Assembly (NCBI GenBank): GCA_023898365.1
Contig: CP060219.1
Coordinates: 932,444-996,443 of the forward strand
From: Candidatus Woesearchaeota archaeon
GTDB taxonomy: Archaea > Nanobdellota > Nanobdellia > Woesearchaeales > GCA-023898365
Reading direction: 5' to 3'
Length of the DNA stretch: 64,000 nucleotides
Shown: positions 43,837 to 64,000 of the stretch, one piece after another
How the letters are laid out: each line of letters opens with the position of its first letter
How positions within the stretch are numbered: position 1 is the first letter of the stretch
The notes under the pieces: generated by a model
Seen by the model: only the letters and a program-made list of their open reading frames with translations
The model's database searches: none
Told to the model about the DNA's origin: nothing
Position numbers and translations under genes: made by a program

Positions 43837-43845
43837 AATACTTGT

Positions 43846-45951: not shown

Positions 45952-45962
45952 AGATAAGAAAC

Positions 45963-46055
45963 TGCTCCCGCCGGGATTCGAACCCGGGTCGTCGCCTTTC
46001 TCCAAATGAAACATTCGAGAGGGCGACATGATTGGCCGGACTACACCACAGGAGC
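45963..46055 (-). tRNA. tRNA-Glu (CTC) with an intron of about 18 nt in the anticodon loop
   Basis: The reverse complement begins GCTCCTGTGGTGTAGTCCGGCCAATCAT, the typical archaeal tRNA-Glu 5' half. It continues TCGCC-CTCTCG[AATGTTTCATTTGGAGAA]A-GGCGA, then CGAC, CCGGG-TTCGAAT-CCCGG, CGGGAGC-A. Confidence 0.8.
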
Positions 46056-46075
46056 ATAAAAAGAAAAAAAGAACC

Positions 46076-46360: not shown

Positions 46361-46370
46361 ACGTCATCCC

Positions 46371-46559
46371 TTATTCTTCTTTTTTTGCGAGTCGCGTGAC
46401 GTATCCTGCAATGATGTTTCTTAGTTTCTTACTCTGGACGTCAGTAAATGTTACGACTTTCTCTTTATTTTCCTTAAATTTCTTACTAAACGCTCCTGGA
46501 TGCTGTGCCATCAGATCCTGCGTCTTCGCTTTAATTACTCGAGTTTTAATTCTTCCCAT
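46371..46559 (-). CDS. rps17e: 30S ribosomal protein S17e
   Basis: MGRIKTRVIKAKTQDLM... in a 62-aa protein, typical of archaeal S17e. Confidence 0.9.
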   Translation of the reverse strand: MGRIKTRVIKAKTQDLMAQHPGAFSKKFKENKEKVVTFTDVQSKKLRNIIAGYVTRLAKKEE

Positions 46560-46713
46560 CGTACCACTTCGAAGCTGATATTTCTTTATAAATTTTGTTT
46601 TTTAGCAGCTTAGAAGGTCATTTTCAAGCGTTCAAGCTGCTCTTGCTCCTTTTACTGATTTGACATATGTTCTGTCAGAAAATTAAATAAAGAGAAGGCA
46701 TGTACGCAGAAAC

Positions 46714-47448
46714 GTGATGGATCTTAAAGACTTTGCTTTAGCATTTGCAGCTGCAAGAAAAGCTGGAGAATCGCTCGTCTTTTTCTGTACGTGCGCCATT
46801 ACCTATTCAGGAAGAGCTGAAGCTCGACTTGGAGAGGGTGAACGCCTTGTCGTCATTAAATCTGATGGCGTCTTGCTCATTCATCAACCTACCGGGGGCA
46901 TGCCTATTAATTATCTCAAAGCAGGATCAACGTTAACGCTAGAAAAAAAGGAAAAACATTACCTGCTTAAAGGAGTTTTTCAAAAAGAAATCCTTGAAAT
47001 TGACTTATATCGGGTTTTTTCTTGCATGTCAAGGCGTCTAGATGACGGGGCGAAACAAGTCCTTGCAGGCAATGAGAAAGATATGAGTGATATGATCAAA
47101 GATAATCCTCACCTCATCAGTCCCGATTTTATTCCGCTTTCTCGTGAAGAACACACCAAATTCGGGTTTATTGACGTGTTTGGGCATGATGCGAAAGGAA
47201 ACCTTATCATTATAGAGTGTAAACGGTTTACTGCTTCGCTTGCGGCAGTCACCCAACTTCGCCGGTATGTGGAAAAGATAAAGAGTTTGAAAGGCATTTC
47301 CAGCGTAACAGGCATTTTAGCTTCACCAACAATTTCTCCGAACGCCCTATCTATGCTTCAAGAATGGGGTTTTTCCTGGAAAGAAGTTCATCCTCCAAAA
47401 CGTCTTGAACATTTTAACAAAAAACAGCAGAAGCTTGATGCATTTTAG
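46714..47448 (+). CDS. nucS: Endonuclease NucS/EndoMS
   Basis: The N-terminal half-barrel segment is YSGRAEARLGEGERLVVIKSDGVLLIHQ. The C-terminal RecB-like motif is IDVFGHDAKGNLIIIECKR. Confidence 0.9.
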   Translation: MMDLKDFALAFAAARKAGESLVFFCTCAITYSGRAEARLGEGERLVVIKSDGVLLIHQPTGGMPINYLKAGSTLTLEKKEKHYLLKGVFQKEILEIDLYRVFSCMSRRLDDGAKQVLAGNEKDMSDMIKDNPHLISPDFIPLSREEHTKFGFIDVFGHDAKGNLIIIECKRFTASLAAVTQLRRYVEKIKSLKGISSVTGILASPTISPNALSMLQEWGFSWKEVHPPKRLEHFNKKQQKLDAF

Positions 47449-49115
47449 AGCGATTGTAACAATCCATCAAGAGACTGTAAAGAAACACCTTCTCGCGCAT
47501 GAGTTTCGTGAAGGGTTTCTAGACCTCTTTGCAGGAGAAGTGGTCGAGATGAGTCTCCAGATGTTTCAAGACCATATGCGGCTCTTGAAATGCTTTTAAG
47601 GACGCGAAAGAGTTCAATGTGGGCAAAAACTCGGGTGGTGCGAGGGTCATCAGTAAGTAAATGAAGGGAATATGCTTCTTGCAATCCTGATGTGCGGTAT
47701 TGTTCGTCCATCACCTCAAGAAGTTCAGTTCTTAGCTGTTCATACCCCTCAAAATCATAACGAACAGCAGCGGAAGTAAGTACATCAGCAGTAGTCAGTA
47801 AATGTCCTACATCTCCAAAATGGTCTTCTCCCGCACTACGCACATCACCTAAGTCACAAAAATACGCTTCCACCTCTCCTGATTCTTGAAGAACAAAACT
47901 TCCATTAAATATATGCGAATCTCCTTGAATATCCATGCCAAGCCAGCGAACAACGTCTGTGTGACCTGCCTGAAGAGATTCATGAAATTCCCTCTCATGA
48001 GCAGTGATAAATGATTTAATTTGTTCTGGATCTAAAGAAAGCGCACGTAAATATTGGATCATATTTCTTCTCATCCAATCAACGCCATGATAACGCAACG
48101 AGTCAACATATTTAACAGGGGGTTTTTGCATACGCTCCTCTTCAGTTAATGTGCGTTGGCTTCTGCGACCATTAATTTTAGTTAAAAGGGCAAGACGCAA
48201 CTCGTTATTGTACGCACTATATCCAATGTATGCTTTCAGAAGTTCATGCAAAGCTATGCGTCGTTGCTTTGCTGATTGAAACAAATCAGGTTTTTCAAAA
48301 AGTGAGAGGCCGGGCAATTTGCCCATGAGAATAAATTCTTCATCAGAAAGTCCATAAATATGGCTTGAAGAGAATCCTGGAATGGGTGTACGATCAAACG
48401 CGTCGATATGCACACCAAAGTATCTTGACGGGTGTGCTGCTGCGCGAAGATTGAAAAGCTCTCGATCAAACCCTGTCCGGTAGGGTTTACTTCCCTGTAT
48501 GGGGGTCTTAACAACAAGTGTTCCAAAATAAATTTTTCCTCTTGCGTCTTCAAAGCTAATATCATGAAAAGAAACTTTGTTTGTAAAAAGACCTGTGCGT
48601 GTACGGTTACTCGATTCATCTATTCTCAAATTTCGAAGTGGGCGAGCAGTATCTTGATCTCCAAAAATAGCAAGAGCTATTTGTTCAAGAGCAACTTTAT
48701 CGATCCCTTTAAGATTTTCTTGTACGTGAACAGGTTCTTCTCCCGCATGAAGACGCCGCATAGTTTCTTTTCGTCCATCAGCAGTGAGGCTGTCAATTTC
48801 AACAACTTGAATTTCTCCTGACTCGATTAATTTTCTTGATCTTCGCTCCGAAATCATGCCAAGCACTTGCGAACTTACAGAAACCGGAACTCCTTTGCGG
48901 CGAGCAAAAGCAAGCGATTCTTCTAACATTCGCAGATCGGTTTTTTTTACAGAAATGCCTGTTTCAATTTTATCAAGAGGGATAAGATCAGTTGGCGCAT
49001 AAACGGTAATGTGCTCTATTTCTTCATTTTGGCAAAGTCTCCGCACTATATTAATCAAATCATTTCGAGAGTTCTTTGATTTTACCATTCTTATCAAACA
49101 GATGTTTACTACCAC
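47445..49115 (-). CDS. Hypothetical two-part protein with a possible kinase-like (APH/ChoK-type) C-terminal half
   Basis: A 556-codon ORF. DIQGDSHIFNG resembles an HGDxHxxN catalytic loop, and FCDLGD resembles a DFG-type Mg site. The N-terminal ~150 aa are unrecognised. This is a weak, motif-only call. Confidence 0.35.
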   Translation of the reverse strand: MVVNICLIRMVKSKNSRNDLINIVRRLCQNEEIEHITVYAPTDLIPLDKIETGISVKKTDLRMLEESLAFARRKGVPVSVSSQVLGMISERRSRKLIESGEIQVVEIDSLTADGRKETMRRLHAGEEPVHVQENLKGIDKVALEQIALAIFGDQDTARPLRNLRIDESSNRTRTGLFTNKVSFHDISFEDARGKIYFGTLVVKTPIQGSKPYRTGFDRELFNLRAAAHPSRYFGVHIDAFDRTPIPGFSSSHIYGLSDEEFILMGKLPGLSLFEKPDLFQSAKQRRIALHELLKAYIGYSAYNNELRLALLTKINGRRSQRTLTEEERMQKPPVKYVDSLRYHGVDWMRRNMIQYLRALSLDPEQIKSFITAHEREFHESLQAGHTDVVRWLGMDIQGDSHIFNGSFVLQESGEVEAYFCDLGDVRSAGEDHFGDVGHLLTTADVLTSAAVRYDFEGYEQLRTELLEVMDEQYRTSGLQEAYSLHLLTDDPRTTRVFAHIELFRVLKSISRAAYGLETSGDSSRPLLLQRGLETLHETHAREGVSLQSLDGLLQSL

Positions 49116-49176
49116 TAGATAAGAATTATTTCTTTATATACTTTATTGCATTTTAGCACATTTTGCGAAGAAAACA

Positions 49177-51804
49177 TCAATCTTGCTGATTGGTGAGATG
49201 CTTGACATATTCAGAAACAAACTTACCAATACCAAAGATTCCTGCAGACACGATCACTATATGACCCCATTCAAAGATGGTGAGTGGAGTAAGTTTGAAG
49301 ATAAGGTTACCAATTGGCGTATAGATTAATAGAAGCTGGAGAGCAAGAATAAGAAGAATAGAGTAATTTAAGTATTTGTTCGAGAGCATGGCCGTGTGGT
49401 ATTGATCTCTAATCATCATGAGTCGAACAATTTCAAGCACGACAAGGGTTGTTACTGCCATTGTCCAAGCTTTCTCCGGTGAATGGGCAAGACCAACAGA
49501 GAATAAGTAAAGTGTTGCTGCCGTAAGAAGAATGCCAATGGCAATAATATTATAGAGCATGTTTCTTGTGATGATATGTTCTTTTGGATCTCGAGGTTTT
49601 CGATTCATTATTCCTTTATCAATAGGATCAACGCCCAATGCTAACGCGGGAAAACCATCTGTAATAAGATTAATCCAGAGAAGGTGAATGGCAAGCAAAG
49701 GAAGAACAAGAACACCGTTATACATGAAACCTATGAGCATTGCTACAAAGAGAACAAGAACTTCACTAAAATTACTTGAAAGAAGATAATTGACAAATTT
49801 TTTCATATTGTCATAAATACCTCGTCCTTCCTCAATAGCATTGACAATGGAAGAAAAATTATCATCAAGCAAGAGCATATCACTTGCTTCTTTTGCAACG
49901 TCAGTTCCGGAAATGCCCATGGCAATACCAATGTCAGCTTTTTTGAGTGCAGGAGCATCATTTACCCCATCTCCTGTCATCGCAACAATATGGCCTTTTT
50001 GTTGAAGAGCGTGCACTATCTTTAATTTATCTTCTGGATTAACGCGTGCATAGATGCCTATATCTTCAATTACCTTATCAAGATCAACTTTATCAAGGTC
50101 TTTTGCTTCAAGAGCACTTCCTTCAATACCGAGTTGTCTTCCAATTGCAACTGCTGTGCCAAGATGATCACCAGTAATCATGATTACTTTTATTCCTGCT
50201 CGCTTGCTCTTTGCAATTGACTCGGCCACTTCAGAACGAGGAGGGTCCATCATGGCAAGTAAACCAGTAAAAATTAATTTTTGCGCATAATCATTCTTTG
50301 ACTTTACTTTATCGTTATACGCAAATCCGAGCACACGCAAGGATTGTTCAGAAAATTTGTGAACAACACTTAGTAATTCTTTTTTTCGTTTGGGTGTAAG
50401 TTTGGAGACTTTTCCATTAACACTTATTTTTGTGCAATGCTCTAAAATAACATCTGGAGCTCCTTTCACATAACTTACTTTTTTGTTCTTTATCTTGTGA
50501 ATGGTTGCCATGCGTTTGTCACGAGAATTAAACGGAAGTTCATCAACTCGCTTTAGTTTATCTGCAACACCAGTAAACAGTCCAATACGATGACAGAGCA
50601 GTAAGAGTGCGGATTCGGTTGGGTCACCGGTCTTTTTTATCTCCCCTTCTTCTTCATACACAGAAGCATCATTACAATGCATACTCGCTGCTAAGAGTTC
50701 TTTATGAAGATATCTCTTAGCTTTTGCAATTTCCTTATCGTTCTTTAATGACACTACTTTATTGTTCGTCCAGGCTTTAACAACCGTCATTTCATTCTTT
50801 GTTAACGTGCCTGTTTTATCTGTACAAATTACCGTAACACTGCCTAATGTTTCAACTGAGGACAATCGTCTCATCAAAGCATTTTTTTTGACCATCTTTT
50901 GTATGCCAAACGCAAGAGCAATAGTAATAACAATCGGTAATCCTTCCGGAACAGCAGCAACAGAAAGACTTACAGCCGTAAGAAACATCTGGACAAGAGA
51001 GCCTCCTTTAAGAAGACCAACGATAAAGATAATGACTGAAATGACAATGGTAAGAAGTGCAAGGAATTTTCCAAGTGAAGCAAGTTTTAACTGCAATGGC
51101 GTGTGCTTTTCTTTTTGTGAAGTCACTAATTTGGCAATTTTTCCAACTTCTGTTTGCATACCAGTTGAGACAATAACTGCAACACCTTTACCTGAGACAA
51201 TGTTTGTGCCTGAAAACACCATGTTGATGCGATCACCAAGCTGGGCTGTTTCTTTGACAATACTAACTGTCTTGCGCACCGCATCACTTTCGCCTGTTAA
51301 TGCTGATTCTTGCACGCGAAGTTCGGTTGCTTCAAGAAGTCGCGCATCTGCAGGCACTTTATCTCCTTCCTCAAGAAAGATTATATCTCCGGGAACAACA
51401 TCCTTACTATCTATTACTTTTTTTTCATGGGCTCGCATTACGCGGGTTGTTTGCGCGACTAATTTTTGTAACGCCTCAATCGCTTTTTCAGCTTTAAACT
51501 CTTGCAAAAAACCCATGACTGCATTAAGTATAAGAATTGATAGAATAGCAATGGCGTCAACCCATTCACCAACTAAGCTCGAAATAATTGTTGCAACAAT
51601 GAGAATAAGAATAATAGGGCTATTAAATTGTGAAAAAAATATTCTTAAGGGAGAGGTGTGCTTTTCTAATGAGAGAATGTTCTGACCATACTGCTCAAGG
51701 CGTTTCTTTGCTTCATCATCAGAAAGACCGCCAATTTTTACCCCAAGATGAGTAAGGCAAGCAGTAGTTTTCATTGCATGATAAGAAGTCATACTATTCC
51801 CCAC
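49177..51804 (-). CDS. P-type cation-transporting ATPase (type II, Ca2+-ATPase-like)
   Basis: LTGES, the phosphorylation site [14 protein letters not shown] and [21 protein letters not shown] are present in an 875-aa protein with about 10 TM segments. The listed start is GTG; an ATG follows at 51792. Confidence 0.92.
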
Positions 51805-51831
51805 ACCTCACTCCAATTTGATATACTGCGA

Positions 51832-51839
51832 TTTATAAA
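51832..51839 (-). promoter_or_regulatory. TATA box TTTATAAA upstream of the P-type ATPase gene
   Basis: Located 28-35 nt upstream of the GTG at 51804. Confidence 0.45.
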
Positions 51840-51859
51840 AGTTGTCAAAAGAAAATAAG

Positions 51860-51867
51860 AAAAAAAA
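51860..51867 (-). terminator. Oligo-T (T8 on the minus strand) just downstream of the giant ORF stop
   Basis: An A8 run on the plus strand lies 12-19 nt past the TGA at 51879-51881. Oligo-T tracts act as archaeal terminators. Confidence 0.35.
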
Positions 51868-51878
51868 TATCGACGTGT

Positions 51879-54800
51879 TCACTTATGGTTGTGCAAGTGA
51901 CGATGCTTTTTCTTGTCATGCCACCAATGGCTGACAACAATCGCAAGGATTGCAAGCAAACCAAGGGCAAGGAATAACGCACCAGTTCCTTTTTGGCTGA
52001 GAAGATCAGCTAAACCTTGACCTTCATCGTCAGTATCGCTCGTGTCAACATCTGTGGTATCAAGTTGTTCGCCAAGACCGTCACCATCATTGGTTGTATC
52101 AGCAACACTTGCAGGCTCCTGATCAGGTATGGTTTCAGGTGCAGTTTCTACTTCTTCTTCAGGCTCTTCTTCAGTCGCTGGAAGCGATGGACTTGAGGAG
52201 GAACTAGGTGTCGTTTCCTCTTCTGCTGGTGTTGAGGATCCAGGACAAGCAGTTGCTCTCCAGACTCCTGAACAGATGTAACCACTATCACGATAGACAT
52301 TCAAACTATCATAACAACCTTGCGTTACCGCGGCGTTGGTGAAAATGTCCGCACAAAGGAGTCTGTCTCCACTCAAACCATAGCTTGAGAAGTGCGTCAC
52401 ATTTGCCCACACATAGTTATGTGACTCATTCACGCCTGTTGCATTGACAAAGTCCATCGCTGAGGATAACCGAGACCACGTATGGTTTGTCTCATTATAC
52501 CAACTCAGGAACAGTCCTGTTTCATTCAAACCAGACTCGTTTACTTCTTCATCCGTATAATACATGCGCAAGATCACCCATCTGATAGCAGCTGTCAAAT
52601 CAGCACTCTCATCAAAGGTGATGTATTTGAGCGAATCATTGATAGTTGTATTATCATACGGACTTTCTTCATCCAGCGTAATGTTCATTGCACCATTTCC
52701 AACAGAAGCATTTGTCGAAATGTTCACCGTAGCATTAACTCGTGATCCGTTAATCACAATGCTTTCATTTGCATTCGCTTCGATGTTTTCAAATCTGACC
52801 ACTTCAACAACACTTACGTTCGTCCTTGTTCTTACCACATTACCTGCAAGGTCGATAATAGATACATTAAATCTATATCTGCCAAGCGTGTCAAATGGCT
52901 CAAACGTGTATGTATACCTATTGTTTGTTGGTGATAATGTATACGCAGTCCTTGTTCCATTTGGATCTGTCACATTCAATGCAGCATACAAGCTTCCCGT
53001 TGCCGAGAAGTTAAGTGTCACTTCATCAACACCTTGTTGTGGTCTTGCAGGAAGAGCAAGAGCTGCTTGCGTTACAACTGGCGCTGTCGTGTCAACATTA
53101 ACCGTTAATGTTTTTGTTGCTTCAACATTACCCGCAGCATCAACAGTGCGATACTTGATCGTTCTATTATTCGTTTCCTTAAACGTATAATTCGTAGCTG
53201 CAACCCATCCAGTTGTACTGTTTCTCCAGATAAGTGTTGTTCTGTTTGAACCACCACTTGTTGAAGTAAACGATGCAAGCACGTTAGTTGTGTAATAACC
53301 GTTTCTTCCATTCACACTTGAAGGTGAAAGAGTGTAACTTGTTACGGGCACCGTACTATCACGATAGATATAATCTGTGCTCGTGTTTGTCTTACCACTT
53401 TCATCTGTTGCAACAACCGTTATGGTGTTGTTCGCATTATTGGTTAGCGATATTCTCTTATAATACACAGTTCCATTATACGACGCAACTAAACCGTTCA
53501 CACGAACATCTTTCAAGTTAGTATCATTTGCAGTAGCAGTTACATTAATGCTGTTTGCTGTTGTGTACGCTGGTGTGATGTTAAACATCATCTCTGGCGT
53601 TACACTGTCAACCACAATGGTTACTACGCTTGTCACATTATACCCTGTTGAAGAGTTTGCCCATACATATAAGGTAAGTGAAGCAGATTCTACTCCATTA
53701 ACAGTGTAATTTGCAACTCCACCGCTTATCGATGTTGGCGTTACGTTATCTGTTGAATTAAACCAGGTAGTGTCTGAGTTCATCACTTGAATGTTCACCA
53801 AACTACCATTACTTAAGTAATCACCATTGCTAATGTTAAAGACTATGGTTGGCAACGTGTCATTAATAACCACACTATAACTCGTATCTTCAACAGTATT
53901 ACTATACACATCTTCTGCTCTGATGGTTACCGTATATGAGCCATCTGTTGCTGGAAGTGTTGACCAGGTTCCCGTATAAGTTGATCCTGATGCGGTCATG
54001 GTAACATTCGATCCATTCAAATCTGCGGTTACACTTGTCAATGGATTCGTGTCAGTCACGCGCGCAGTCACCGTCACACTCGTTGTTGTTGTTCGTGCAG
54101 GATTTGGTGTTGCGTAAATATTGCTAACAACTGGCGAAGCGTTATCATAGTTAACGTATGCAGTTGTGCTACCTGCATTTCCAATTCCATCTCCAACTTG
54201 AACTGCAATTGTGTTCACTCCTTGTAAGAAAGAAGTGATTGTGTAATTCCAGTTGGTTCCACTCACATTGGCAACGGTCGTGTACGCGCCGCCATTAATA
54301 CTGATATTTATTGATGACGTCGTTTCACTTGTGTTACCAATTACCATCAGCGTGCTTGACGAATAATTCAATCCATCGCTTGCAGGTGTTGTTATCGTGA
54401 CTGTTGGCAACGTATTATCTACAATCAGTCTTACTGAAGCAGTGTGTGTTAAAGCACCATGTTCAGTCGCCCTAAATGAGAGGTTATATGTGCCATCACT
54501 AATACCTGCCGTATCCCAGGTGTACGTGAAATTATACAAGGTATTATTTGCAATAAATCCTTGCGACGTGCCATTTCTAAACACTTCCATGACCACACCA
54601 GGTGCAGAACTGCTCACATTAATACTTTGTATTCCTGAAACTGTTTGGTCGTTGGTATGTGTTAGTACAGAAACTACAGGTGCTGTCGTGTCAACAATAA
54701 CTGTCTTCGTGTATTGTTTTCCCGTCACTCCGGAATTATTATTTCCCGCATTGTCAACCGAGTACGCAATAATATTGTAGGTTCCATCACTGTTCAAGTT

Positions 54801-57800
54801 AAATGGTACCGTGTATGCCGTGTATGAAGTTCCACCGTTTGTTGAATAATACGTTCCAGCAATGCCCGAGTCACCATAGAGTTCTGGTTCTGTAACGGTA
54901 AGTGCAACTGTTGCTGCTGTTACATAGACGCCGTTTGATTTAGTTCCATTAATTACTCCCGTAACTGTTGGTGCGACTTTATCGATAGAGTACGAAACAT
55001 TTCCTGTGGTCATGGTGCCAAGCGTATCATTTGCTCGGTAACGCACCACACCAGTTCTGGTCACATTAAATGGTGCAGTATATGTTGTCCAAGATCCATC
55101 TCGTATTCTATATTGTAAGGTTGCCACATCACTTACTGCATCAACAGCTGACAAGTTAAGGAGTATATTTGTTGTGTACCAACTATTATCTCCTTCAGTG
55201 CCAGTCCAAATTGTTGGCGTGATAACTGGTCCTGCTGTGTCAACCGTTACATTGTAGGTGGATGATACACCAAGATTTGCGCTGTTGTCTAAGCACGTAA
55301 CATTCCAATCATATTGACCATCAGCTGCAAACGTGTACGCGTAGGTGTCTGCAAGACCGCTTGTCATTGATGCGTTGGTTGTTGTATTAATCAACTCATC
55401 AGTGCTGTTGTAAATGTTTAGTGTGCAACTAGCCAAACTCAATGCGTCAGTTCCTGTGTATGTAAAAGTTACTGCTCGTGATGTTGTCGCAGTATCATCT
55501 GCAGGTAAGGTTAATGCCACGCTTGGTCCGGTCGTATCATTTACTGAAATATTAATGATGGTGCTTGCAACAGATTGTCCCGCTAAATCATAGACGGTTA
55601 ATGACAACGCAACGCTTGATTCAACGTAATTTGCTGCGTTTGTCCAGGATACTGTCGTGTTCGCATCAGACGTAAACGAAACATTTGCTTGTCCAACACC
55701 ATTTTCTGCAAATTCAATATACCACGGATTCGCTTCGGTGACATTGATAATAAATTGCACCGCTTCTGATGAGTTAATTGAACTATTTGCCATAACTCCC
55801 GTTCTGTTTGCAGTTAATGCGTTAATTACTGGCGCAACTGAATCAATACCGATGTTTTGTTGGTTTGCAGTTTCCACGTTACCTGCTAAGTCAACACTAT
55901 AATACGTAATCGTCGTGTTTCCTTCACTTGAAACAGTAAATGGTGTCTGATCCCAATTCACAAGCGAACCATTGTTCACCCAGGTATTATTCGCATATAA
56001 TTCAGTGACACTAAAGTTTACACTAACACTTGAGGTATACCACGTGTTTGATCCTTGCGTTCCTGTTAGACTTATAGTTGTAACAGGATCGGTAAGATCA
56101 ACGATCAACGTTCGAGCTGTTGAGTTGGCCGTGTTTCCTGCTGCGTCCGTGCATCCAACAAGCCATGCATAGGTTCCTTGCGCAAAGCCAGAAACAGTGA
56201 TGTTCTGATTTGCAGCTGCAGACATTGAAGCATTAGTTGCATTCAAACTACCATTTACGTAAATACCGCAACTCAACGTTGCATCGTAAGCATCGCTCAA
56301 ATCAACGGTAAATTTCTGCGATGAAAGGTTCGTATACGCAGTTGCTGCAGGCGATGAAGCAGTTACCGTTGGAACGGTGGTGTCTACAACCGTTAACGTA
56401 ATGGTGCTCGTATTTGCCCACACTGAACTATCATTAGCTTGCATAGCTTCAACCTTGAACGTGTACGTGCCAGGTGTTGTGTCGCCAACAGTAAGCAATG
56501 CACTTCCTGATGCGGAGCTATCAAGGGTGATGTTACTTGCGTTTACTGTTCCCGTATCTGCACTGTTTATGTTGTACAATGTCAAGTTATACAGTAGCGC
56601 GTCAAGTGTTCCATTGTTGGTTACCGTCACAAGGAAGTCTTTCGTTGTTGATTCGTTAACTGAGGCGCTCGTTGCATTTACTGCAATGTGTACGCCGTAA
56701 ATCTCAGCTTCTGCAGTAGTAAAGGTATATTGTCCTGTTGTGTTACAGTTACCAGTTGCATCACAGCTTGTTACCGCATAATAATACAACGTGCCATTAA
56801 GCAAACTGCTAATAGTAAAGTTGTGTGCAGTAACTAAGCTTGCATTGCCTGTTGAACTACCGAGAGCAGATGTTGTGCCGTAGTTAATACTGCTATTTGC
56901 TGCTTCATCAGTAAGCCAGCCTATTGAGACAGACGTATCTCTTATGCTTTGATTTGTAACAGCAGTAATCACCGGCGCAACAGTATCGTTAACCGTTAAG
57001 GTCAACGTTGTAGTTGTAGCAGTAACAGTTGGCTCATCGTTCTTTGTTGCAGTAATAGTAAACTGGTATGTGCCAGGCGTCGTATCTCCAACAGTTAAGC
57101 TAACAAGTGCGCTTGCACCAATATCAAGCGTGACATTGCTCGTGTTAAGCGTTGCTGTATCAGCACTATTCGTGTTTACTCTGGTGATGTCATACGTGAC
57201 ATTATCGAGCGTTCCGTTATTTGTGAATAGCGCATAGAACACTGCAGTCGTTGATTCTGTTGCACTTGCAGTAGCACTAACAACAGTTGCATTCACATCA
57301 GCTCCTGAGGGAACAATTGTTGCTGCTGTTGTTACGGTGTATGGTCCTGTCGTGTTACAATTGTCATCTCCATCACAACTGGTAATATTGTAATAATACA
57401 ACGTGCTGTTAGTCAAACCAGTAACAGGAACGCTATGGTTTGTTGTAAGCGTTGCATTCGTAACAACACCATCACTTAAGTCAACCGTTGTACCATACGC
57501 AATGCTTGCATTCGCACTTTCATGTGTGGTCCAATTAACCACAAACGAAATGTTCGTGATACTTGCATTAACTACGCTTGAAATAATAGGCGCTTGCGTA
57601 TCCACAACAACCAACGTAATTGTTGGCGTCGTTGCAAACACCGCACCATTAGTAGACTGCGTAGCAGTTACCGTAAATTGATAGATGCCAGCATCAGGAT
57701 CACCTACCGTCAAAAGCACATCAGCACTAGCGCCGCTATCAAGCGTTAATGATGAATCATTAATCGTTGCAGTTGTCGCACTGTTAGCGTTAGTTCTGGT

Positions 57801-60800
57801 AATATTATAACTAATACCATCTTCAGTGCCATTGTTTGTTACCGTAACAACAAAGGAAACACTGGCAGTGTCCGAATTATTAATGAGCGCACCACTCGCA
57901 TTCACAGTAATGTTCACATCATAAATCACTGGACCTGGTGTGTCTGCTGTCGTAAAGTTATATGGTCCTGTTGTGTTACAGTTAGCACTAGCATCACAAC
58001 TCGAGACGTTATAATAGTAGAACGTACTATTCGTAAGGCCGGTCAAGTACACGCTATGACTTGTTCCCATACTCGCGTTCACTGTCGTGCCATCACCTAA
58101 TGCTAAGGTAGTGCCGTAAGCAACACTTGCATTCGCCGACTCGTTCGTCGTCCAAGTAATAAACGCAGTCGTATTCGTTACCGTACCGTTTGCCACACTC
58201 GTAATCTGAGGGGCAACAATATCAACAGCTGCAGCAGTTGTCACATTGAATGGTCCTGCAACATCACAATTATCACTACCATCACAAACTGTGACATTAT
58301 AATAATACAACGTACTAGGTGTCAAACCAGTAACCGAAACATTATGCGTCACCGACAAAGTAGCATTAACCACTTCACCATCACTAAGCGCAAGCGTCGT
58401 ACCATACAAGACACTCATGTTACCAGCTTCACCAGTTGTGGCCATGTTCACTTGGAAGCTCGTATTTGCAACTGACGTATTTGTCACACTACTAATGACA
58501 GGAGCGACTGTATCCAGCACCGTTAAGGTAAAGGTTGGCAACGTCATATTATTTGCAGAATCATTATTTTGAGCAACCGTCACAACAAAATTGTACGTGC
58601 CAGGCGTAGCATCACCAACGGTAAGCGAGATCATTCGAGACTCACCACTATCAATAACCACTCCTGAATCATTCTGCACATCATAATCTGCGCTATTTGG
58701 ATCGGTGTGCGTTACAAGATACGTCACACTCGTCGTGTTCGTACCATTATTATGCACATTAATGTAGAACGTTGCATTTTGCGATTCTATCACACTCGCA
58801 CTCGTTCCATTTGATGTAGCATTCACATCATACACTGCAGGAGGAATGGTTGCCAATGTTGTGAAATTATGCGGTCCTGTCGTGTTACAGTTACCTGCTG
58901 CATCACACGAAGTGACATTAAAATAATGAAGCGTCGCAGGAGTCAAACCACTTACATAAACACTTTGAGAAAGACCCATCGTCGCATTGACAGTTGTCCC
59001 ATCGCTCAAAGCAAGTGTCGTACCATAACTTACGCTAGCGTTTGCACTCTCACCAGTACTCCAAGTGATTACCGCACTCACATCAGTGATAGAACTGCTC
59101 AAAACAGTAGTAATGTTTGGAGCTACTATATCAGCTGCAGCCAAGGTGGTAAAGTTGTATGGACCACTAACTTTACAGTTAGCACTCGCATCACAACTGG
59201 TCACATTATAAAAGTACATTGTTGCAGGTGTAAGACCTGAAAGCGAGATGTTGTGCACTGTAGCAAGCGTTACATTAATTTCTTCACCATCGCCAAGAGC
59301 GGTCGTTGTACCATACCTGACACTGCTGTTAGCAGCCTCATTCGTACCCCAATTTACCTGCGCGCTCGTATTTGCAACTGACGTATTTGTCACACCACTA
59401 ATCGTTGGTGCGTTTGTGTCATTAACGGTCAATGTAAGCGTGACAGTTGTCGCATTCACACTTGAGTCGCTATTTCTCATTGCCGTGACGTTATACACGT
59501 AGGTACCTGGCGTTGTATCACTAACAGTTAGCTTTACAACAGTGGTTTCTCCACTATCAAGCGTGACACTTGACGTGTTCAAAGATGCAACATCACTGCC
59601 AGTAGCATTATTGACAGTCACATTATATACAACAGCGTTTGCAGTACCATTATTACCAATAGTTATGGAAAAAGTACCATTTGTTGTTTCTGTAGTTGAA
59701 ATTGTTATTGGACTTGCAGATACGTTCACACTATAAATTGGTGCTGCTGGTGTGTCTGCTGTTGTAAAGTTATATGGTCCTGTTGTGTTGCAATTACCTG
59801 CAGCATCACATCCACTGACGTTATAATAATACAACGTGCTGTTAGTCAAACCTGTTAGTAAAGCGTAATGCCCAGTTCCTAATGTTGCATTGTAATAAGC
59901 ACCATCGCTCAAAGCAAGTGTCGTACCATACGCAACTGTTGAGTTTGCCGCTTCACCTGTAGTCCAACTGATCACCGCGCTCACATTCGTTACCGTGCCA
60001 TTAGCAACACCAGTAATCGTAGGAGCAACAATATCAGCTGCAGCCAAAGTGGTTACGTTGTACGGTCCACTGGTTGCACAGTTACCTGCTGCATCACACG
60101 AAGTGACATTATAATAGTAAAGAGTGCTTGGTGTCAAACCAGTTATCGACTCATTATGCGTTGTTGCAACACTGCTGTTTGTCACACTACCACCAGATAA
60201 GGCAAGCGTGGTTCCGTAAGCAACACTTAAGTTTGCCGCTTCAGTTGTAGCAACATTTACTTGGAAACTCGTATTTGCAACTGACGTATTTGTCACACCA
60301 CTAATCGTAGGAGGCGTTGTATCATTAACTGTTAACGTAAGCGTTCCCGTACTAGCATTAATCGCGGAATTATTATTAACTCTCGCGGTAGCCACAAATT
60401 GATACGTGCCTGGAGTAGAATCACTCACATCTAAGCGAACAATACCGCTCTCTCCACTATCTAGCACCACAGTGCTCGTATTTTGAAGATCAAAATCCGC
60501 ACTATTCACATCAGTATGCGTAATAACATAGGTCACACCAGTTGTGTTCGTACCATTATTCGTAACAGTAATGTAAAATGACGCATTACCATTTTCCACA
60601 ATACTCTCAGCACTACTATTCACACTCACCTGCACATCGTAAACAGCAGGAATTGCTGGTGGAGGAGTTGCAGCAGTCGTAAAGTTATATGGTCCTGTGG
60701 TGTTACAATTTGGAACAGCATCACAGGCGGTGATATTATAGTAATATAATGTACTATTCGTCAAGCCAGTGAGTAACGCATAATGACTAGTTCCCGTAGT

Positions 60801-63800
60801 AGCATTGGTGTGCGTTCCATCACTAAGCGCAAGAGTCGTACCATACGCAACTGTTGAGTTTGCCGCTTCACCAGTACTCCAAGTAAGAACAGCACTCACA
60901 TTCGTTACCGTGCCATTAGCAACACCAGTAATCGTAGGAGCAACAATATCAGCCGCAGCCAAGGTGGTAAAGTTATACGGACCTGTCGTGTTACAGTTAC
61001 CTGCAACATCACAACTACTTATATTATAATAATACAAAGTGCTAGGAGTTAAGCCGCTTAATGACAAGTTATGAACTGTGTCAAGACTTGCATTAACAAC
61101 AACCCCATCACCTAATGCTAAGGTAGTTCCATAAGCAACACTACTATTACTTGCTTCGTTTGTAGCCCAATTAACTTTAGCACTCACATTAGCAATTGAA
61201 TTATTAATCACATTACTGAATGTAGGGGCAACCGTATCATTAACTGTTAACGTAAGCGTTCCCGTACTAGCGTTGACAGCACTATCATTAGCTTGTGAGG
61301 CAGTAACCACGAACTGATATGTGCCTGGCGTCGCGTCACTTACTGTTAACGAAATAATGCCACTCATACCACTGTCAAGCGTAATATTACTTGCATTCTG
61401 AGTATCAACATCTGCACTGTTTGGATCAGTGTGAGTGACATCATAAAACACCCCGGTCGTATCCGTACCGTTATTTGTTACTGAAATATAGAATGTTGCA
61501 CTCTGAGACTCAACAGTGTTAAGGCTCGTACCATTCGTAGAAACTTGCACCCCATACACTGCAGGTGTAGGTGCTGCTGGTGTATCTGCTGTTGTGAAGT
61601 TATATGGTCCTGTGGTGTTACAATTTGGAACAGCATCACAGGCAGTGATGTTATAGTAATATAATGTACTATTCGTCAAGCCAGTAAGTAACGCATAATG
61701 ACTAGTTCCCGTAGTAGCATTGGTGTGCGTTCCATCACTCAAAGCAAGAGTCGTACCATACGCAACTGTTGAGTTTGCCGCTTCACCAGTACTCCAAGTA
61801 AGAACAGCACTCACATTCGTAACTGTACCATTAGCAACACCAGTAATCGTAGGAGCGGTAACATCTGCAGCTGGAGTTGCTGTTAATTGCAGCACCAAAT
61901 CATCATTCGAGTTGAACGTGACCGTTGCATTGTTTGCCAAGGTGGATGTGATGTTGAAGGTGTATGTTCCTACAACTGATGCTTGCATAGTAAAGTTTGT
62001 AACAAAGCTCGCGTTCGTTGCAAGCACCACATTATTTACAGTGGTCGTTCCATTCAACCATGCTGTTGTATTTGCATTTTTCTCAATAGAGAAGTTATAC
62101 GATCGAGATACATTATCTCTATTAGTGATGTTCATAAGAACGGACACATTAACATTTACTGCTTCAGTTCTTGTTGCATTGGTTAAGTTTGCATAGGTCA
62201 AATTATACGTTATTGCTCCAGAACTATAGGTGGAAAATCCAAGTGTTGTTGGAATTCTCCAAATAGTATAATCTGGTGTTGAAGATACTAAAGCAACGCC
62301 TTGTGTTTGCGTTACATCTGTGCAACTTGTTCCAGAATCATCACAGTGATACAAATAGTCATCTTCGCCATTTGGCACTTGAATCAATAAATAATCCGTT
62401 CCAAACTTTTGCACTAATTCAAGCCAATCTGCATGTTCCATTCCCATGAAATCATCGTTATCCCCGGTGCTGTTCGCTAAGAATGCGCCAGTGAAATCGA
62501 TAATGTCTGCTTGCGAAAAGTCAAGGCCGACAAAGGTAATAGACCAATTGTCTGCTGCAGTTGCGTTAGGATTCAAGAAAGTTAAATTAACTCCAAACGA
62601 TGAGAAGTTAAAGTCTCCAACTCCAATATCCACGCCATTTGCCAGTATAGTGAGATCGCCTAGTGGATCAGAAGGATTTCCTTGTCCTGTGTAGTTGAAC
62701 TGCATGGAAACATTTTGTGCTGCCGCCGCCGTTGTAAAGTTCAAGCATTTAGACCTGGCGGTAAGATTTGCTTGATCTCTTGATCGAAGTTTGTAATAGT
62801 AGGCAGTATTTGGCTCTAATGAGTATCCAAGTGAATTATACTCAAGTACGACATGATGCCATGATTTGAAGTCATCAAATGTTGATTCTGCCATGCCATA
62901 ATCGAACACGGTTGCGTTGAGTTGTGTACAACCACTTGATTTATTGTAGAACAAGACACTACCGTTTGTTGGTTCATCATTAAGCCATTTGACAAAGGCA
63001 AGGTCTGATGAAACTTCAACTTCGCTATGTATAACATGGGGGGTCGTCGTATCTGCTAATGGACTATAGGTTGATTGCCCCGCACAATTAGGAGCCATTG
63101 CACATTCTGAATCATCACAATTTGTAAATCCATCAACGTCTTCGTCTCCTGGTGCAATGCAGTCTTCGAATGGCATATACTCGCCACCACCCAAATACAT
63201 AAATTCTGAGCCACATTGCGATGGGTTTTCAAAGCAATTGATTGGTTCAAACTCAATTGTTCCAGGCGTGTAATACGCATTCTCAGCAGCATCAAACGCA
63301 TATAGATTTGAGAAGTTTGCCCATGATCCATTTATGACAAAGATGCTAAAGCGCATATCGTCTTTTGGATTTCCTATGTCAGTTTTGTCAAGAACAACAG
63401 GAACAAAATTTCCTCCAGGGAATTCTGGATCTTCAGGCTCACATTCAACAGCGAAATAATTAAAGCCGTTTTCTGGATGTTGAGGATCTACCGGATCAAC
63501 TACCTGTACTGGAAGCACCGTTCCATCTTTTAACACCCACTCGCCTCTAAAGCAAGCCCAAAGTTGTCGGGTGTTATTGATTGTATAATTGATACCAGTG
63601 TAGTTTCCATATTTAACAAGGAATTCAAATCCTGTTTTTGTTGCGCCATTCACCGTAAGATTACATCCGCTTGAAAGGTTTGCATCGTTATCAATGCCGT
63701 ACAAATATTTTCTTGCAGATAAAGAACCACCACAAACATGCAATTCTGCTGTGCTACTTACAAACGCGCCAAGACCCATTCCTAAATCAGTCATAACAGC

Positions 63801-64000
63801 AATAACTGCTTTAATTTCTGTTGAAGCATTGGCTACTGTTGAATCAGCCGCATTATCATGTTTTAAGTCAAGAATGTTTGGCTCTTGCATACCCATTAAA
63901 CGCACCAACTGCGCATCATACTCATCATAGCCTTGATACGTGCCAACAAGTGTGTTGATATGAGCTCCACAGAATCGTGCGCTGTCTTGACAAGAACCTT
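51879..64000 (-). CDS. Giant cell-surface protein (more than 4,039 aa, N-terminus outside the window): FN3 / CARDB-like / Ig-like repeat protein with a C-terminal TM anchor
   Basis: The listed start at 63908 is TTG. I translated the 30 codons upstream (63909-63998) and found no stop, so the ORF runs off the window. FN3-like modules (YGTT..L..G......H...L.GL.P.T.YYYN..SCD..GNC) alternate with CARDB-like modules. WYT-containing Ig-like modules follow. The C-terminus is an acidic S/T/P/E linker, the hydrophobic helix GALFLALGLLAILAIVV, and a basic tail HDKKKHRHLHNHK. Confidence 0.9.
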   Translation of the reverse strand, partial: GSCQDSARFCGAHINTLVGTYQGYDEYDAQLVRLMGMQEPNILDLKHDNAADSTVANASTEIKAVIAVMTDLGMGLGAFVSSTAELHVCGGSLSARKYLYGIDNDANLSSGCNLTVNGATKTGFEFLVKYGNYTGINYTINNTRQLWACFRGEWVLKDGTVLPVQVVDPVDPQHPENGFNYFAVECEPEDPEFPGGNFVPVVLDKTDIGNPKDDMRFSIFVINGSWANFSNLYAFDAAENAYYTPGTIEFEPINCFENPSQCGSEFMYLGGGEYMPFEDCIAPGDEDVDGFTNCDDSECAMAPNCAGQSTYSPLADTTTPHVIHSEVEVSSDLAFVKWLNDEPTNGSVLFYNKSSGCTQLNATVFDYGMAESTFDDFKSWHHVVLEYNSLGYSLEPNTAYYYKLRSRDQANLTARSKCLNFTTAAAAQNVSMQFNYTGQGNPSDPLGDLTILANGVDIGVGDFNFSSFGVNLTFLNPNATAADNWSITFVGLDFSQADIIDFTGAFLANSTGDNDDFMGMEHADWLELVQKFGTDYLLIQVPNGEDDYLYHCDDSGTSCTDVTQTQGVALVSSTPDYTIWRIPTTLGFSTYSSGAITYNLTYANLTNATRTEAVNVNVSVLMNITNRDNVSRSYNFSIEKNANTTAWLNGTTTVNNVVLATNASFVTNFTMQASVVGTYTFNITSTLANNATVTFNSNDDLVLQLTATPAADVTAPTITGVANGTVTNVSAVLTWSTGEAANSTVAYGTTLALSDGTHTNATTGTSHYALLTGLTNSTLYYYNITACDAVPNCNTTGPYNFTTADTPAAPTPAVYGVQVSTNGTSLNTVESQSATFYISVTNNGTDTTGVFYDVTHTDPNSADVDTQNASNITLDSGMSGIISLTVSDATPGTYQFVVTASQANDSAVNASTGTLTLTVNDTVAPTFSNVINNSIANVSAKVNWATNEASNSSVAYGTTLALGDGVVVNASLDTVHNLSLSGLTPSTLYYYNISSCDVAGNCNTTGPYNFTTLAAADIVAPTITGVANGTVTNVSAVLTWSTGEAANSTVAYGTTLALSDGTHTNATTGTSHYALLTGLTNSTLYYYNITACDAVPNCNTTGPYNFTTAATPPPAIPAVYDVQVSVNSSAESIVENGNASFYITVTNNGTNTTGVTYVITHTDVNSADFDLQNTSTVVLDSGESGIVRLDVSDSTPGTYQFVATARVNNNSAINASTGTLTLTVNDTTPPTISGVTNTSVANTSFQVNVATTEAANLSVAYGTTLALSGGSVTNSSVATTHNESITGLTPSTLYYYNVTSCDAAGNCATSGPYNVTTLAAADIVAPTITGVANGTVTNVSAVISWTTGEAANSTVAYGTTLALSDGAYYNATLGTGHYALLTGLTNSTLYYYNVSGCDAAGNCNTTGPYNFTTADTPAAPIYSVNVSASPITISTTETTNGTFSITIGNNGTANAVVYNVTVNNATGSDVASLNTSSVTLDSGETTVVKLTVSDTTPGTYVYNVTAMRNSDSSVNATTVTLTLTVNDTNAPTISGVTNTSVANTSAQVNWGTNEAANSSVRYGTTTALGDGEEINVTLATVHNISLSGLTPATMYFYNVTSCDASANCKVSGPYNFTTLAAADIVAPNITTVLSSSITDVSAVITWSTGESANASVSYGTTLALSDGTTVNATMGLSQSVYVSGLTPATLHYFNVTSCDAAGNCNTTGPHNFTTLATIPPAVYDVNATSNGTSASVIESQNATFYINVHNNGTNTTSVTYLVTHTDPNSADYDVQNDSGVVIDSGESRMISLTVGDATPGTYNFVVTVAQNNDSANNMTLPTFTLTVLDTVAPVISSVTNTSVANTSFQVNMATTGEAGNMSVLYGTTLALSDGEVVNATLSVTHNVSVTGLTPSTLYYYNVTVCDGSDNCDVAGPFNVTTAAAVDIVAPQITSVANGTVTNTTAFITWTTNESANASVAYGTTLALGDGTTVNASMGTSHSVYLTGLTNSTFYYYNVSSCDASANCNTTGPYNFTTADTPGPVIYDVNITVNASGALINNSDTASVSFVVTVTNNGTEDGISYNITRTNANSATTATINDSSLTLDSGASADVLLTVGDPDAGIYQFTVTATQSTNGAVFATTPTITLVVVDTQAPIISSVVNASITNISFVVNWTTHESANASIAYGTTVDLSDGVVTNATLTTNHSVPVTGLTNSTLYYYNITSCDGDDNCNTTGPYTVTTAATIVPSGADVNATVVSATASATESTTAVFYALFTNNGTLDNVTYDITRVNTNSADTATLNTSNVTLDIGASALVSLTVGDTTPGTYQFTITATKNDEPTVTATTTTLTLTVNDTVAPVITAVTNQSIRDTSVSIGWLTDEAANSSINYGTTSALGSSTGNASLVTAHNFTISSLLNGTLYYYAVTSCDATGNCNTTGQYTFTTAEAEIYGVHIAVNATSASVNESTTKDFLVTVTNNGTLDALLYNLTLYNINSADTGTVNASNITLDSSASGSALLTVGDTTPGTYTFKVEAMQANDSSVWANTSTITLTVVDTTVPTVTASSPAATAYTNLSSQKFTVDLSDAYDATLSCGIYVNGSLNATNASMSAAANQNITVSGFAQGTYAWLVGCTDAAGNTANSTARTLIVDLTDPVTTISLTGTQGSNTWYTSSVSVNFSVTELYANNTWVNNGSLVNWDQTPFTVSSEGNTTITYYSVDLAGNVETANQQNIGIDSVAPVINALTANRTGVMANSSINSSEAVQFIINVTEANPWYIEFAENGVGQANVSFTSDANTTVSWTNAANYVESSVALSLTVYDLAGQSVASTIINISVNDTTGPSVALTLPADDTATTSRAVTFTYTGTDALSLASCTLNIYNSTDELINTTTNASMTSGLADTYAYTFAADGQYDWNVTCLDNSANLGVSSTYNVTVDTAGPVITPTIWTGTEGDNSWYTTNILLNLSAVDAVSDVATLQYRIRDGSWTTYTAPFNVTRTGVVRYRANDTLGTMTTGNVSYSIDKVAPTVTGVINGTKSNGVYVTAATVALTVTEPELYGDSGIAGTYYSTNGGTSYTAYTVPFNLNSDGTYNIIAYSVDNAGNNNSGVTGKQYTKTVIVDTTAPVVSVLTHTNDQTVSGIQSINVSSSAPGVVMEVFRNGTSQGFIANNTLYNFTYTWDTAGISDGTYNLSFRATEHGALTHTASVRLIVDNTLPTVTITTPASDGLNYSSSTLMVIGNTSETTSSINISINGGAYTTVANVSGTNWNYTITSFLQGVNTIAVQVGDGIGNAGSTTAYVNYDNASPVVSNIYATPNPARTTTTSVTVTARVTDTNPLTSVTADLNGSNVTMTASGSTYTGTWSTLPATDGSYTVTIRAEDVYSNTVEDTSYSVVINDTLPTIVFNISNGDYLSNGSLVNIQVMNSDTTWFNSTDNVTPTSISGGVANYTVNGVESASLTLYVWANSSTGYNVTSVVTIVVDSVTPEMMFNITPAYTTANSINVTATANDTNLKDVRVNGLVASYNGTVYYKRISLTNNANNTITVVATDESGKTNTSTDYIYRDSTVPVTSYTLSPSSVNGRNGYYTTNVLASFTSTSGGSNRTTLIWRNSTTGWVAATNYTFKETNNRTIKYRTVDAAGNVEATKTLTVNVDTTAPVVTQAALALPARPQQGVDEVTLNFSATGSLYAALNVTDPNGTRTAYTLSPTNNRYTYTFEPFDTLGRYRFNVSIIDLAGNVVRTRTNVSVVEVVRFENIEANANESIVINGSRVNATVNISTNASVGNGAMNITLDEESPYDNTTINDSLKYITFDESADLTAAIRWVILRMYYTDEEVNESGLNETGLFLSWYNETNHTWSRLSSAMDFVNATGVNESHNYVWANVTHFSSYGLSGDRLLCADIFTNAAVTQGCYDSLNVYRDSGYICSGVWRATACPGSSTPAEEETTPSSSSSPSLPATEEEPEEEVETAPETIPDQEPASVADTTNDGDGLGEQLDTTDVDTSDTDDEGQGLADLLSQKGTGALFLALGLLAILAIVVSHWWHDKKKHRHLHNHK
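56380..61880 (-). repeat. In-frame tandem array of about 6 supermodules (FN3 / CARDB-like / FN3), period about 903-915 bp
   Basis: The conserved junction sequence (cagtaatcgtaggagc and variants) recurs ending at 61856, 60941, 60026, 59123 and 58214. That gives spacings of 915, 915, 903 and 909 nt. The protein shows the matching repeat pattern. Confidence 0.85.
60682..60941 (-). repeat. 260-bp near-identical copy of 61597-61856 (one FN3 module)
   Basis: By hand alignment there are 8 mismatches in 260 nt with an offset of exactly 915 nt. The encoded 88-aa modules (APTITGVANG...GPYNFTT) are identical. Confidence 0.85.

Follow-up and report, generated by a model that had tools for sequence, protein, structure and literature searches.

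A giant predicted surface protein of a DPANN archaeon and the Cys-rich core it shares with a family of Woesearchaeota/DPANN proteins

The giant gene and its full-length product

The window analysed here, a stretch of 64,000 nucleotides (nt) of contig CP060219.1 from a Candidatus Woesearchaeota archaeon, contains on its minus strand a giant gene coding for a predicted surface protein. The open reading frame (ORF) listing of the window placed it at 51879..63908, with 4,009 amino acids (aa) counted from a TTG. Translation of 51879-63998 on the same strand gave 4,039 sense codons followed by one terminal stop, the frame being open to the window edge, and in this extent the gene occupies 12,120 of the 64,000 nt (18.9%). 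Such an open run is not due to chance, since by simple arithmetic about 6% of random codons would be stops at a GC content of ~42%.

A profile of the region that we call the head (window aa 1-317 plus one known homologue), compared with 1.84 billion cluster representatives, retrieved an NCBI protein of 5,012 aa (P0002) in which residues 974-5012 are identical to all 4,039 window residues. It comes from a single NCBI contig of 1,131,583 nt. The part seen in the window (51879..63998, minus strand) is thus the last 4,039 codons plus the stop of a longer gene whose first 973 codons lie outside, and full-length positions are obtained by adding 973 to window aa. The ORF belongs to a real gene, whose product has 5,012 residues. 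A sequence-only reading of this DNA had already described an uninterrupted frame of about 19% of the window and had argued that the listed TTG was not the true start. Both statements held, and the N-terminus that it sought could be located in the deposited protein, which begins with the hydrophobic, signal-like segment MIAIIVSFSIFFATLVAAALQ.

The complete protein has a calculated mass of 528 kDa before glycosylation and an isoelectric point (pI) of 4.05. Thr makes up 16% of the window part, with Ser, Asn, Ala and Val at ~10% each. The 46 Cys of this part are clustered at both ends and otherwise appear as C-x5-C pairs, 96 or 204-209 aa apart, along a repeat array. The gene (~15 kb) represents 1.3% of the 1.13 Mb genome.

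Domain architecture

Upstream of the window part the protein contains DUF11-type and immunoglobulin (Ig)-like domains (full-length 129-228 matches DUF11). A conserved, Cys-rich core of ~1,200 aa (full-length ~500-1700) comes next and includes two beta-sandwich domains and acidic DxDxDG/disulfide mini-domains. The first beta-sandwich (full-length ~560-745) is outside the window, and the Cys-rich stretch after it ends in an acidic double-disulfide repeat (NF033662, acid_disulf_rpt; E 6.7e-6, below the cut-off). The second, the Cys/Asp-rich head (window aa 1-317, full-length 974-1290; 63048..63998, minus strand), is the most conserved stretch among the relatives described below. It carries a D-x-D-x-N-x-S-x-G-C loop, and its final motif, ...GGGEYMPFEDCIAPGDEDVDGFTNCDDSECAMAPNC, is the most conserved of the family. 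Both domains are paralogous according to hhalign (probability 93.7%, E 1.9e-7). The beta-sandwich head of the core is without a match in Pfam and NCBIfam. Within it, an acidic DxDxDG/double-disulfide mini-domain (window aa 280-305, CIAPGDEDVDGFTNCDDSECAMAPNC; 63084..63161, minus strand) has weak matches to NF033662 and to the C-rich domain of teneurin-4. The latter, a Ca2+-binding domain, was found by a profile search of the PDB with the head motif (E 0.008), while a plain sequence search of the PDB with the head gave no match. The mini-domain probably binds Ca2+.

The core continues with an FN3 domain resembling Pur_ac_phosph_N, identified by the Pfam scan (window aa 318-423; 62730..63047, minus strand). 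Its remainder (window aa 424-708; 61875..62729, minus strand), delimited by Pfam and the family alignment, is formed by a domain unmatched in Pfam with conserved Cys at 552 and 559 and then by one Ig-like domain. Along window aa 1-600 the family alignment has 14 invariant Cys together with invariant DxDxN/DxDxDG acidic residues, and some Gly and Pro are invariant too.

Behind the core there is a tandem array of 11 FN3 and 7 Ig-like domains (window aa 709-2542; 56373..61874, minus strand) that was resolved by Pfam scans and repeat analysis. It is arranged as five complete FN3-Ig-FN3 supermodules of ~305 aa each (DNA period 903-915 nt), followed by Ig-FN3-Ig. Pur_ac_phosph_N is the Pfam model that the FN3 domains match, in 11 stretches and with 122.7 bits. 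In the middle of the supermodule, the Ig-like domain has weak Pfam matches to Ig-like_KY, MtxA_IG-like and Y_Y_Y; in supermodule 1 it did not match CARDB (PF07705) at E<=0.05. The next ~1,180 aa (window aa 2543-3720; 52839..56372, minus strand) consist of ~13 Ig-like domains of 83-100 aa, bounded by D-x-x-x-P linkers and matching Big_13, Big_3_3, Big_7 and Glucodextran_B. Four domains in this region are of the OmpL47-type beta-barrel kind (window aa ~2633-2718, 2919-3005, 3005-3102 and 3546-3635; model NF047446, 82.1 bits vs a cut-off of 40). The motif [WY]YT[ST] occurs three times, each time opening one of them.

The C-terminal end starts with a 4-Cys domain that has no family match in the Pfam and NCBIfam scans (window aa 3721-3926; 52221..52838, minus strand). 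It is followed by an acidic stalk of 77 aa with 13 E, 11 D, 11 T, 9 S and 7 P (window aa 3927-4003; 51990..52220, minus strand), a single transmembrane (TM) helix recognised by hydropathy, GTGALFLALGLLAILAIVVSHWW (window aa 4004-4026; 51921..51989, minus strand), and a basic, His-rich tail of 13 aa, HDKKKHRHLHNHK (window aa 4027-4039; 51882..51920, minus strand), predicted to be cytoplasmic. The stop codon at 51879-51881 precedes an oligo-T tract.

The architecture drawn by the sequence-only reading was correct in its main lines. The Cys positions bear out its Cys/Asp-rich N-terminal region, translation and hydropathy its C-terminal Cys domain, acidic stalk, single TM helix and basic tail, and NF047446 its suggestion of OmpL47-type domains. 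Two points had to be corrected. The reading proposed about six FN3/CARDB-like/FN3 supermodules, of which five complete and one partial are present, and the likeness to CARDB is one of resemblance only. It also described ~1,400 aa of Ig-like modules with a recurring [WY]YT[ST] motif, where the Ig-like domains are real and the recurrence of the motif was overstated. Of the domain models that it recommended, the FN3-type, Big_x and OmpL47-type ones gave matches and CARDB did not.

Topology and glycosylation signal

Hydropathy along all 5,012 residues detected just two strongly hydrophobic segments, one N-terminal (1-23) and one C-terminal (4975-5000). The predicted topology is that of a type-I membrane protein, with a huge ectodomain and a cytoplasmic tail of 13 aa. 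The window part has 248 N-x-S/T sequons, compared with 101+-8 in 300 shuffles of its sequence, and the whole protein has 304. Their density (6.1 per 100 aa) is ~18-fold that of 22 other ORFs of the window (0.35 per 100 aa). This excess suggests selection for N-glycosylation sites, as expected of an archaeal extracellular protein. The 42 window ORFs that were scanned do not include an AglB gene.

A family of proteins sharing the core

The search with the head profile gave 90 matches, 54 of them at E<1e-10 and 27 at E<1e-30. Identity within the core ranged from 27 to 47%, and single high-scoring segment pairs, at 27-44% identity, spanned full-length ~500-1700. When the termini were compared across 25 family members, the typical relative turned out to be a protein of 1,500-2,400 aa with the core just behind the signal peptide, then a Pro/Thr/acidic stalk, one TM helix and a basic, often His-rich tail. 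Three members of typical size had zero Pfam matches. All six members with a named source are from Woesearchaeota or a "DPANN group archaeon", and they are annotated as hypothetical or as PGF-pre-PGF domain-containing proteins. Examples are COV93_02220 (Woesearchaeota CG11), MFT7615737.1, MFH0977727.1, NOZ81372.1 and MBT7931024.1. By the homology of its core and the layout of its termini, the giant protein belongs to this so far unnamed Woesearchaeota/DPANN family of predicted surface proteins. A homologous-protein search with the N-terminal 700 aa found a sole relative (P0001), and a 12-sequence profile run against the same protein database was dominated by FN3-type words and gave 3 matches, all weak or irrelevant. 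The head alignment, compared with genome and metagenome collections, matched only the Woesearchaeota CG11 contig, once per collection.

Family members range from 1,500 to 7,276 aa, and the middle parts between core and anchor are swapped. The largest (P0006, L007:8001-29831, 7,276 aa) has Peptidase_S8, He_PIG, Big_9 and cadherin-like domains. Another, from ENA (P0005, 5,051 aa), combines a beta-helix and a subtilase with visible D-H-S motifs with a C-terminal array and a Cys domain in common with the giant protein; it is the only detectable relative of the 4-Cys domain among the family representatives (41% identity). The Woesearchaeota CG11 locus (L001) has Beta_helix and PQQ propeller domains and is interrupted by a frameshift. 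Other giants of the family thus carry subtilase, beta-helix or cadherin-like modules in place of the FN3/Ig array described here, and the family mixes adhesin-like and protease-bearing giants. Hidden Markov models built from the FN3 and Ig copies of the giant protein found 11 and 7 copies in it and 0-2 in every other family representative. Because the other representatives have so few, the array is a lineage-specific amplification, private to the giant protein, which adds 18 FN3/Ig domains that no other representative has to a family in which most members are of 1,500-2,400 aa.

Several other features of the relatives can be mentioned. The closest homologous locus, L001:7397-19464 (PCVE01000035.1, Woesearchaeota CG11), is split. 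Homology to the giant protein crosses a frame change near 10828 and a break at 11828-11924 into an ORF of 2,513 aa with Beta_helix, PQQ and FN3 domains that runs off the contig. Its first ORF gains a signal peptide, MKGHIIFAFLLHLFMIVVAYGSYA, when the TTG at 7397 is taken as the start. The same layout is seen from L003:8252 onward (Ga0210019_1001584), where the first ORF is equal in length and relative position. His-rich tails recur in the family, as in P0003, P0016, P0017, P0022 and window aa 4027-4039 (e.g. HKHNKKPAHSHNHK; HHPPHHEVHHEGHAHHPHEHVHH), and might serve in metal binding or sorting. Two members contain the PGF-pre-PGF domain TIGR04213 (P0007, 80 bits; P0008, 75 bits). At ~3-5 kb downstream of the second there are two DsbA/thioredoxin-like genes (L006:20397-22709, JAZDKJ010000002.1), which may be relevant to the disulfides of the Cys-rich core, at this one locus only.

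Integrity of the assembly

In a gene with so many repeats the frame might come from collapsed or expanded repeats in the assembly, or the real gene might be interrupted. The repeats, however, are only 66-72% identical overall in DNA and no exact repeat of 80 nt was found, making a collapse unlikely. Every direct repeat of >=60 nt in the window falls within the giant gene, with supermodule copies starting 903-915 nt apart, a period above the 500-nt limit of TRF, which detected no tandem repeats. The two FN3 copies that are most alike (a1 and a2) have 97% identical protein and 92.7% identical DNA, and differ in 14 synonymous vs 3 nonsynonymous codons. Such a dominance of synonymous differences marks distinct and selected copies, and the array is under purifying selection. 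Diversification of the gene by a diversity-generating retroelement was also considered and rejected, since the repeats are all gene-internal and no reverse transcriptase was found among the 42 ORFs scanned in the 64 kb window.

Assemblies of two other runs could be compared for the 3' part. A Logan assembly of run SRR12358675 (L004) matches window 39177-58487 with 1 mismatch, at 43413 and outside the giant gene, and that of SRR12358676 (L005) is identical to window 47636-57173. Both include the adjoining ATPase gene together with a 3' portion of the giant gene (6.6 kb in L004, 5.3 kb in L005) with zero mismatches inside the latter, reproducing the C-terminal 2,202 residues. A literature search found no paper citing these runs. 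Both contigs end within the repeat array, at 58487 and 57173, which may be no more than the behaviour expected of a short-k-mer assembler. These ends, and the frameshift and break in the locus of the closest relative (L001/L003), are what speaks for an artefact or a pseudogene. Against it there are 4,039 codons without a stop, the divergence and mainly synonymous differences of the repeat copies, the agreement of two further runs, and a deposited protein of 5,012 aa that matches exactly. As for the repeat artefact that the sequence-only reading named as a concern, a second assembly agrees with the window inside the gene up to 58487, and for the gene as a whole we regard such an origin as very improbable.

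Comparison with known systems

Giant FN3/Ig-rich anchored surface proteins are already known in DPANN, and the protein itself is already deposited in NCBI. What is new is the recovery of its full length, the definition of a core that is absent from Pfam and NCBIfam and common to ~50-90 clusters, and the recognition of the FN3/Ig array as a private expansion.

For the SPEARE and other giant proteins of Nanohaloarchaeota, which combine a Sec signal and a membrane anchor with long Ig-like/FN3 arrays in tandem, a part in the interaction with the host has been suggested (Hamm et al. 2019, PMC6642349; PMC10266531). In two genomes SPEARE-type proteins measure 8,880-9,409 aa and have a VirB4/TraG-like ATPase domain, with a VirB4-type ATPase gene following (PMC10266531). 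The gene studied here is similar in that it is a giant in a DPANN genome of ~1 Mb that codes for a signal, Ig-like/FN3 arrays and an anchor. Assignment to the SPEARE type was nevertheless rejected, as an ATPase domain was detected neither by Pfam nor by NCBIfam, the next gene codes for a P-type cation ATPase and the tail has 13 aa. No homology to SPEARE proteins was detected. The surface proteins of Nanobdella aerobiophila are described as having a C-terminal TM helix, 4-7 Ig-like folds and 14-49 sites for N-glycosylation, and those related proteins for which a length is stated measure ~900-1,300 aa (bioRxiv 10.1101/2023.10.27.564410). The giant protein resembles that description, with more than 40 domains and 304 sequons.

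Bacterial fibrillar adhesins (Bap, SiiE, LapA/MpIBP, Embp, the 7,651-aa adhesin of Mobiluncus) likewise show a distal non-repetitive region on a tandem stalk of Ig/FN3-like domains. The combination of a tandem-repeat stalk with a cell anchor, one of the marks of fibrillar adhesins, is found in the giant protein. Ca2+-binding motifs are also in common, and the Bap BSP domain was the top structural match of the core model discussed below (TM <=0.20). The bacterial proteins use type I secretion system (T1SS) export or a sortase anchor, whereas in the giant protein, which is archaeal, TM-helix anchored and probably N-glycosylated, RTX repeats and an LPXTG motif are both absent. An RTX/T1SS adhesin was discarded as well (Ca_tandemer 27.9 bits vs a cut-off of 50, no RTX family match, and a C-terminus made of a TM helix and a basic tail).

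Three other assignments were considered and rejected. With Leptospira OmpL47, a multi-beta-barrel surface protein, the domain type alone is in common (four OmpL47-type domains here), and the equivalog model NF047441 scored 62.9 bits vs a cut-off of 250. The matches to purple acid phosphatase and PhoD involve just FN3-like N-domains (Pur_ac_phosph_N, PhoD_N) and no metallophosphatase domain. As for the PGF-pre-PGF/PGF-CTERM proteins, neither TIGR04213 (even at E<=10) nor any PGF-CTERM model matched the giant protein, and a PGF motif is missing before the TM helix. The giant protein thus differs from its relatives P0007 and P0008, named by NCBI for the PGF-pre-PGF domain, and hhalign of its C-terminal domain against theirs gave a probability of 0.25%. 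Haloarchaeal S-layer glycoproteins and PGF-CTERM proteins similarly have an acidic S/T-rich stalk, a C-terminal TM helix, a basic tail and heavy glycosylation potential, and differ from it in size and in tandem-domain architecture.

A possible role in attachment

We favour, as somewhat better than an even bet, that the product is a type-I anchored, N-glycosylated, fibrillar adhesin-like protein with which this DPANN archaeon attaches to a host cell, to another cell or to a surface. The anchored and glycosylated fibre is suggested by the topology, the sequon excess, the tandem beta-sandwiches, the conserved distal core with a variable middle and the restriction to DPANN. For the attachment role we reason from the likeness to bacterial fibrillar adhesins and to the surface proteins that have been discussed in cultured DPANN. 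The protein would be exported through Sec by means of its N-terminal hydrophobic signal, glycosylated at many of its 304 sequons and tethered by the single C-terminal TM helix, leaving 13 residues in the cytoplasm. Above the membrane, the acidic and probably extended stalk and a chain of ~30 FN3, Ig-like and OmpL47-type beta-barrel domains would act as a semi-rigid spacer of ~100-170 nm (at 3.5-4 nm per domain) that keeps the membrane-distal end at a distance. The DUF11/Ig domains and the disulfide-rich, probably Ca2+-stabilised core would make up this end. Ligand binding would most likely fall to the core, as nothing else is common to the whole family, while the FN3/Ig array, probably amplified recently within the gene, would mainly set the reach. 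The surface location that the sequence-only reading proposed is supported by topology and sequon excess, and of its two suggested roles host adhesion is a plausible one given the architecture, the S-layer-like coat being unlikely for the reasons given below.

A number of results weigh against an adhesive fibre. No recognised adhesive, lectin or carbohydrate-binding domain was found by Pfam or NCBIfam in the giant protein, and the loci of the relatives have no conserved neighbour genes pointing to a pathway. The N-terminal signal-like segment, outside the window, is without a basic n-region, for which reason the annotated start may be slightly off. Support from a second assembly reaches within the gene only to 58487, the 5' 5.5 kb (58488-63998) coming from one assembly. 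The structure predictions did not single out a binding fold either. AlphaFold gave a mean predicted local distance difference test score (pLDDT) of 27 for the head alone with 2 sequences, and 63.8 with a predicted template-modelling score (pTM) of 0.39 for window aa 1-600 with 12 diverse family sequences, in a mostly beta-strand model. Foldseek comparison of the latter with PDB and BFVD yielded generic FN3/Ig/ConA-like beta-sandwich matches with TM-scores <=0.20, the top ones in PDB being the Bap BSP domain and Sas6.

The same lack of an identified binding domain would suit a protective glycocalyx or mucin-like shield, comparable to halomucin, that hydrates the cell or shields it from viruses and grazers with no specific ligand. 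Its huge size, the pI of 4.05, the 304 sequons and the richness of the window part in Thr (16%), Ser (10%) and Asn (10%) point in that direction. However, the repeats are folded FN3/Ig domains and not low-complexity mucin repeats, and the family has retained a specific distal Cys-rich core of ~1,200 aa with invariant Cys, Asp, Gly and Pro, which is unexpected for a bulk polymer, leaving a pure shield rather doubtful. If instead many copies tiled the cell surface, held by the C-terminal TM helix, the protein would be a subunit of an S-layer or coat. The haloarchaeal S-layer glycoprotein has an acidic S/T/P stalk and a TM anchor, as does the giant protein, which is also rich in Ig-like folds and heavily decorated with sequons. 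That no other secreted sequon-rich ORF exists in the 64 kb window could be read in favour of this role, but the window is 6% of the genome and a missing second candidate there carries no weight. Candidate DPANN S-layer proteins are of ~1,000 aa with ~5 Ig-like folds (bioRxiv 10.1101/2023.10.27.564410). Next to these the giant protein is 5x longer, and its more than 40 tandem domains fit a fibre and not a lattice unit. Moreover, the family lengths of 1,500-7,276 aa and the swapped middles (subtilase, beta-helix, PQQ propeller) are unlike a conserved lattice protein, so that an S-layer role is unlikely.

The swapped middles raise a further option, namely a surface platform for enzymes or effectors that degrades or penetrates the host envelope, as proposed for SPEARE or as could be imagined for the subtilase-bearing relatives. 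Core-sharing proteins do carry Peptidase_S8 (P0006), D-H-S motifs (P0005) or beta-helix and PQQ propeller modules (L001). In the giant protein itself, scanned whole and in 10 pieces, Pfam and NCBIfam found no catalytic or ATPase domain, and the Pur_ac_phosph_N/PhoD_N matches cover FN3-like N-domains only. With a cytoplasmic part of 13 aa and a downstream gene for a P-type cation ATPase rather than a VirB4/TraG ATPase, we take an enzymatic platform to be distinctly improbable.

Returning to the attachment fibre, a bolder extension of it can be put forward only tentatively. The Cys-rich core might be a previously undescribed, DPANN-specific host-recognition module, with the different lineages swapping or amplifying modules between core and anchor to tune reach and accessory activity. 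If this were true, Woesearchaeota-like archaea in general would attach by means of this family, and the core could be used as bait to identify their hosts. Little is known, for DPANN archaea of non-extreme habitats, about either hosts or attachment machinery. A distal core found in ~50-90 protein clusters, with named members that are all DPANN, provides a concrete candidate for a recognition module that could pull down or label host cells. In any case, a gene of ~15 kb in a genome of 1.13 Mb means that the organism invests heavily in this protein.

Organism and genomic neighbourhood

The housekeeping genes of the window are archaeal and include those for GluRS, a class II aminoacyl-tRNA synthetase, ThrRS, aIF5B, Cbf5, Trm1, NucS, Sua5 and IMPDH, among others. 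The best relatives of aIF5B are 59-60% identical, and those with a named source are metagenome-assembled genomes of Nanoarchaeia, Woesearchaeota or Nanoarchaeota. At so low an identity, these relatives mark the organism as a divergent member of DPANN whose genome measures at least 1.13 Mb, in agreement with the small-genome archaeon presumed in the sequence-only reading.

The giant gene is followed on the same strand by a gene for a P-type (E1-E2) cation ATPase (49177-51792, minus strand) that starts 86 nt past its stop. Third in this same-strand run is an ORF of 556 aa (47445-49115, minus strand), cytoplasmic, with no Pfam match and no signal peptide. The ATPase was considered as a functional partner supplying Ca2+ to the acidic DxDxDG motifs and was rejected, as the adjacency is absent in the loci of three relatives. 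Two tRNA genes with insertions, at 37914-38043 (130 nt) and 45963-46055 (93 nt), both on the minus strand, were found by Rfam and missed by ARAGORN, and are presumably intron-containing archaeal tRNAs. The window also encodes a histidine kinase with HisKA and HATPase_c domains (36384-37859, plus strand), here in a reduced DPANN genome. Finally, positions 1-6000 have a low GC content (0.28-0.36 vs ~0.41 elsewhere). This stretch contains the genes for a type I restriction enzyme R subunit (207-2849) and a DUF2779 protein (3282-4724), and it may be a defence or mobile island.

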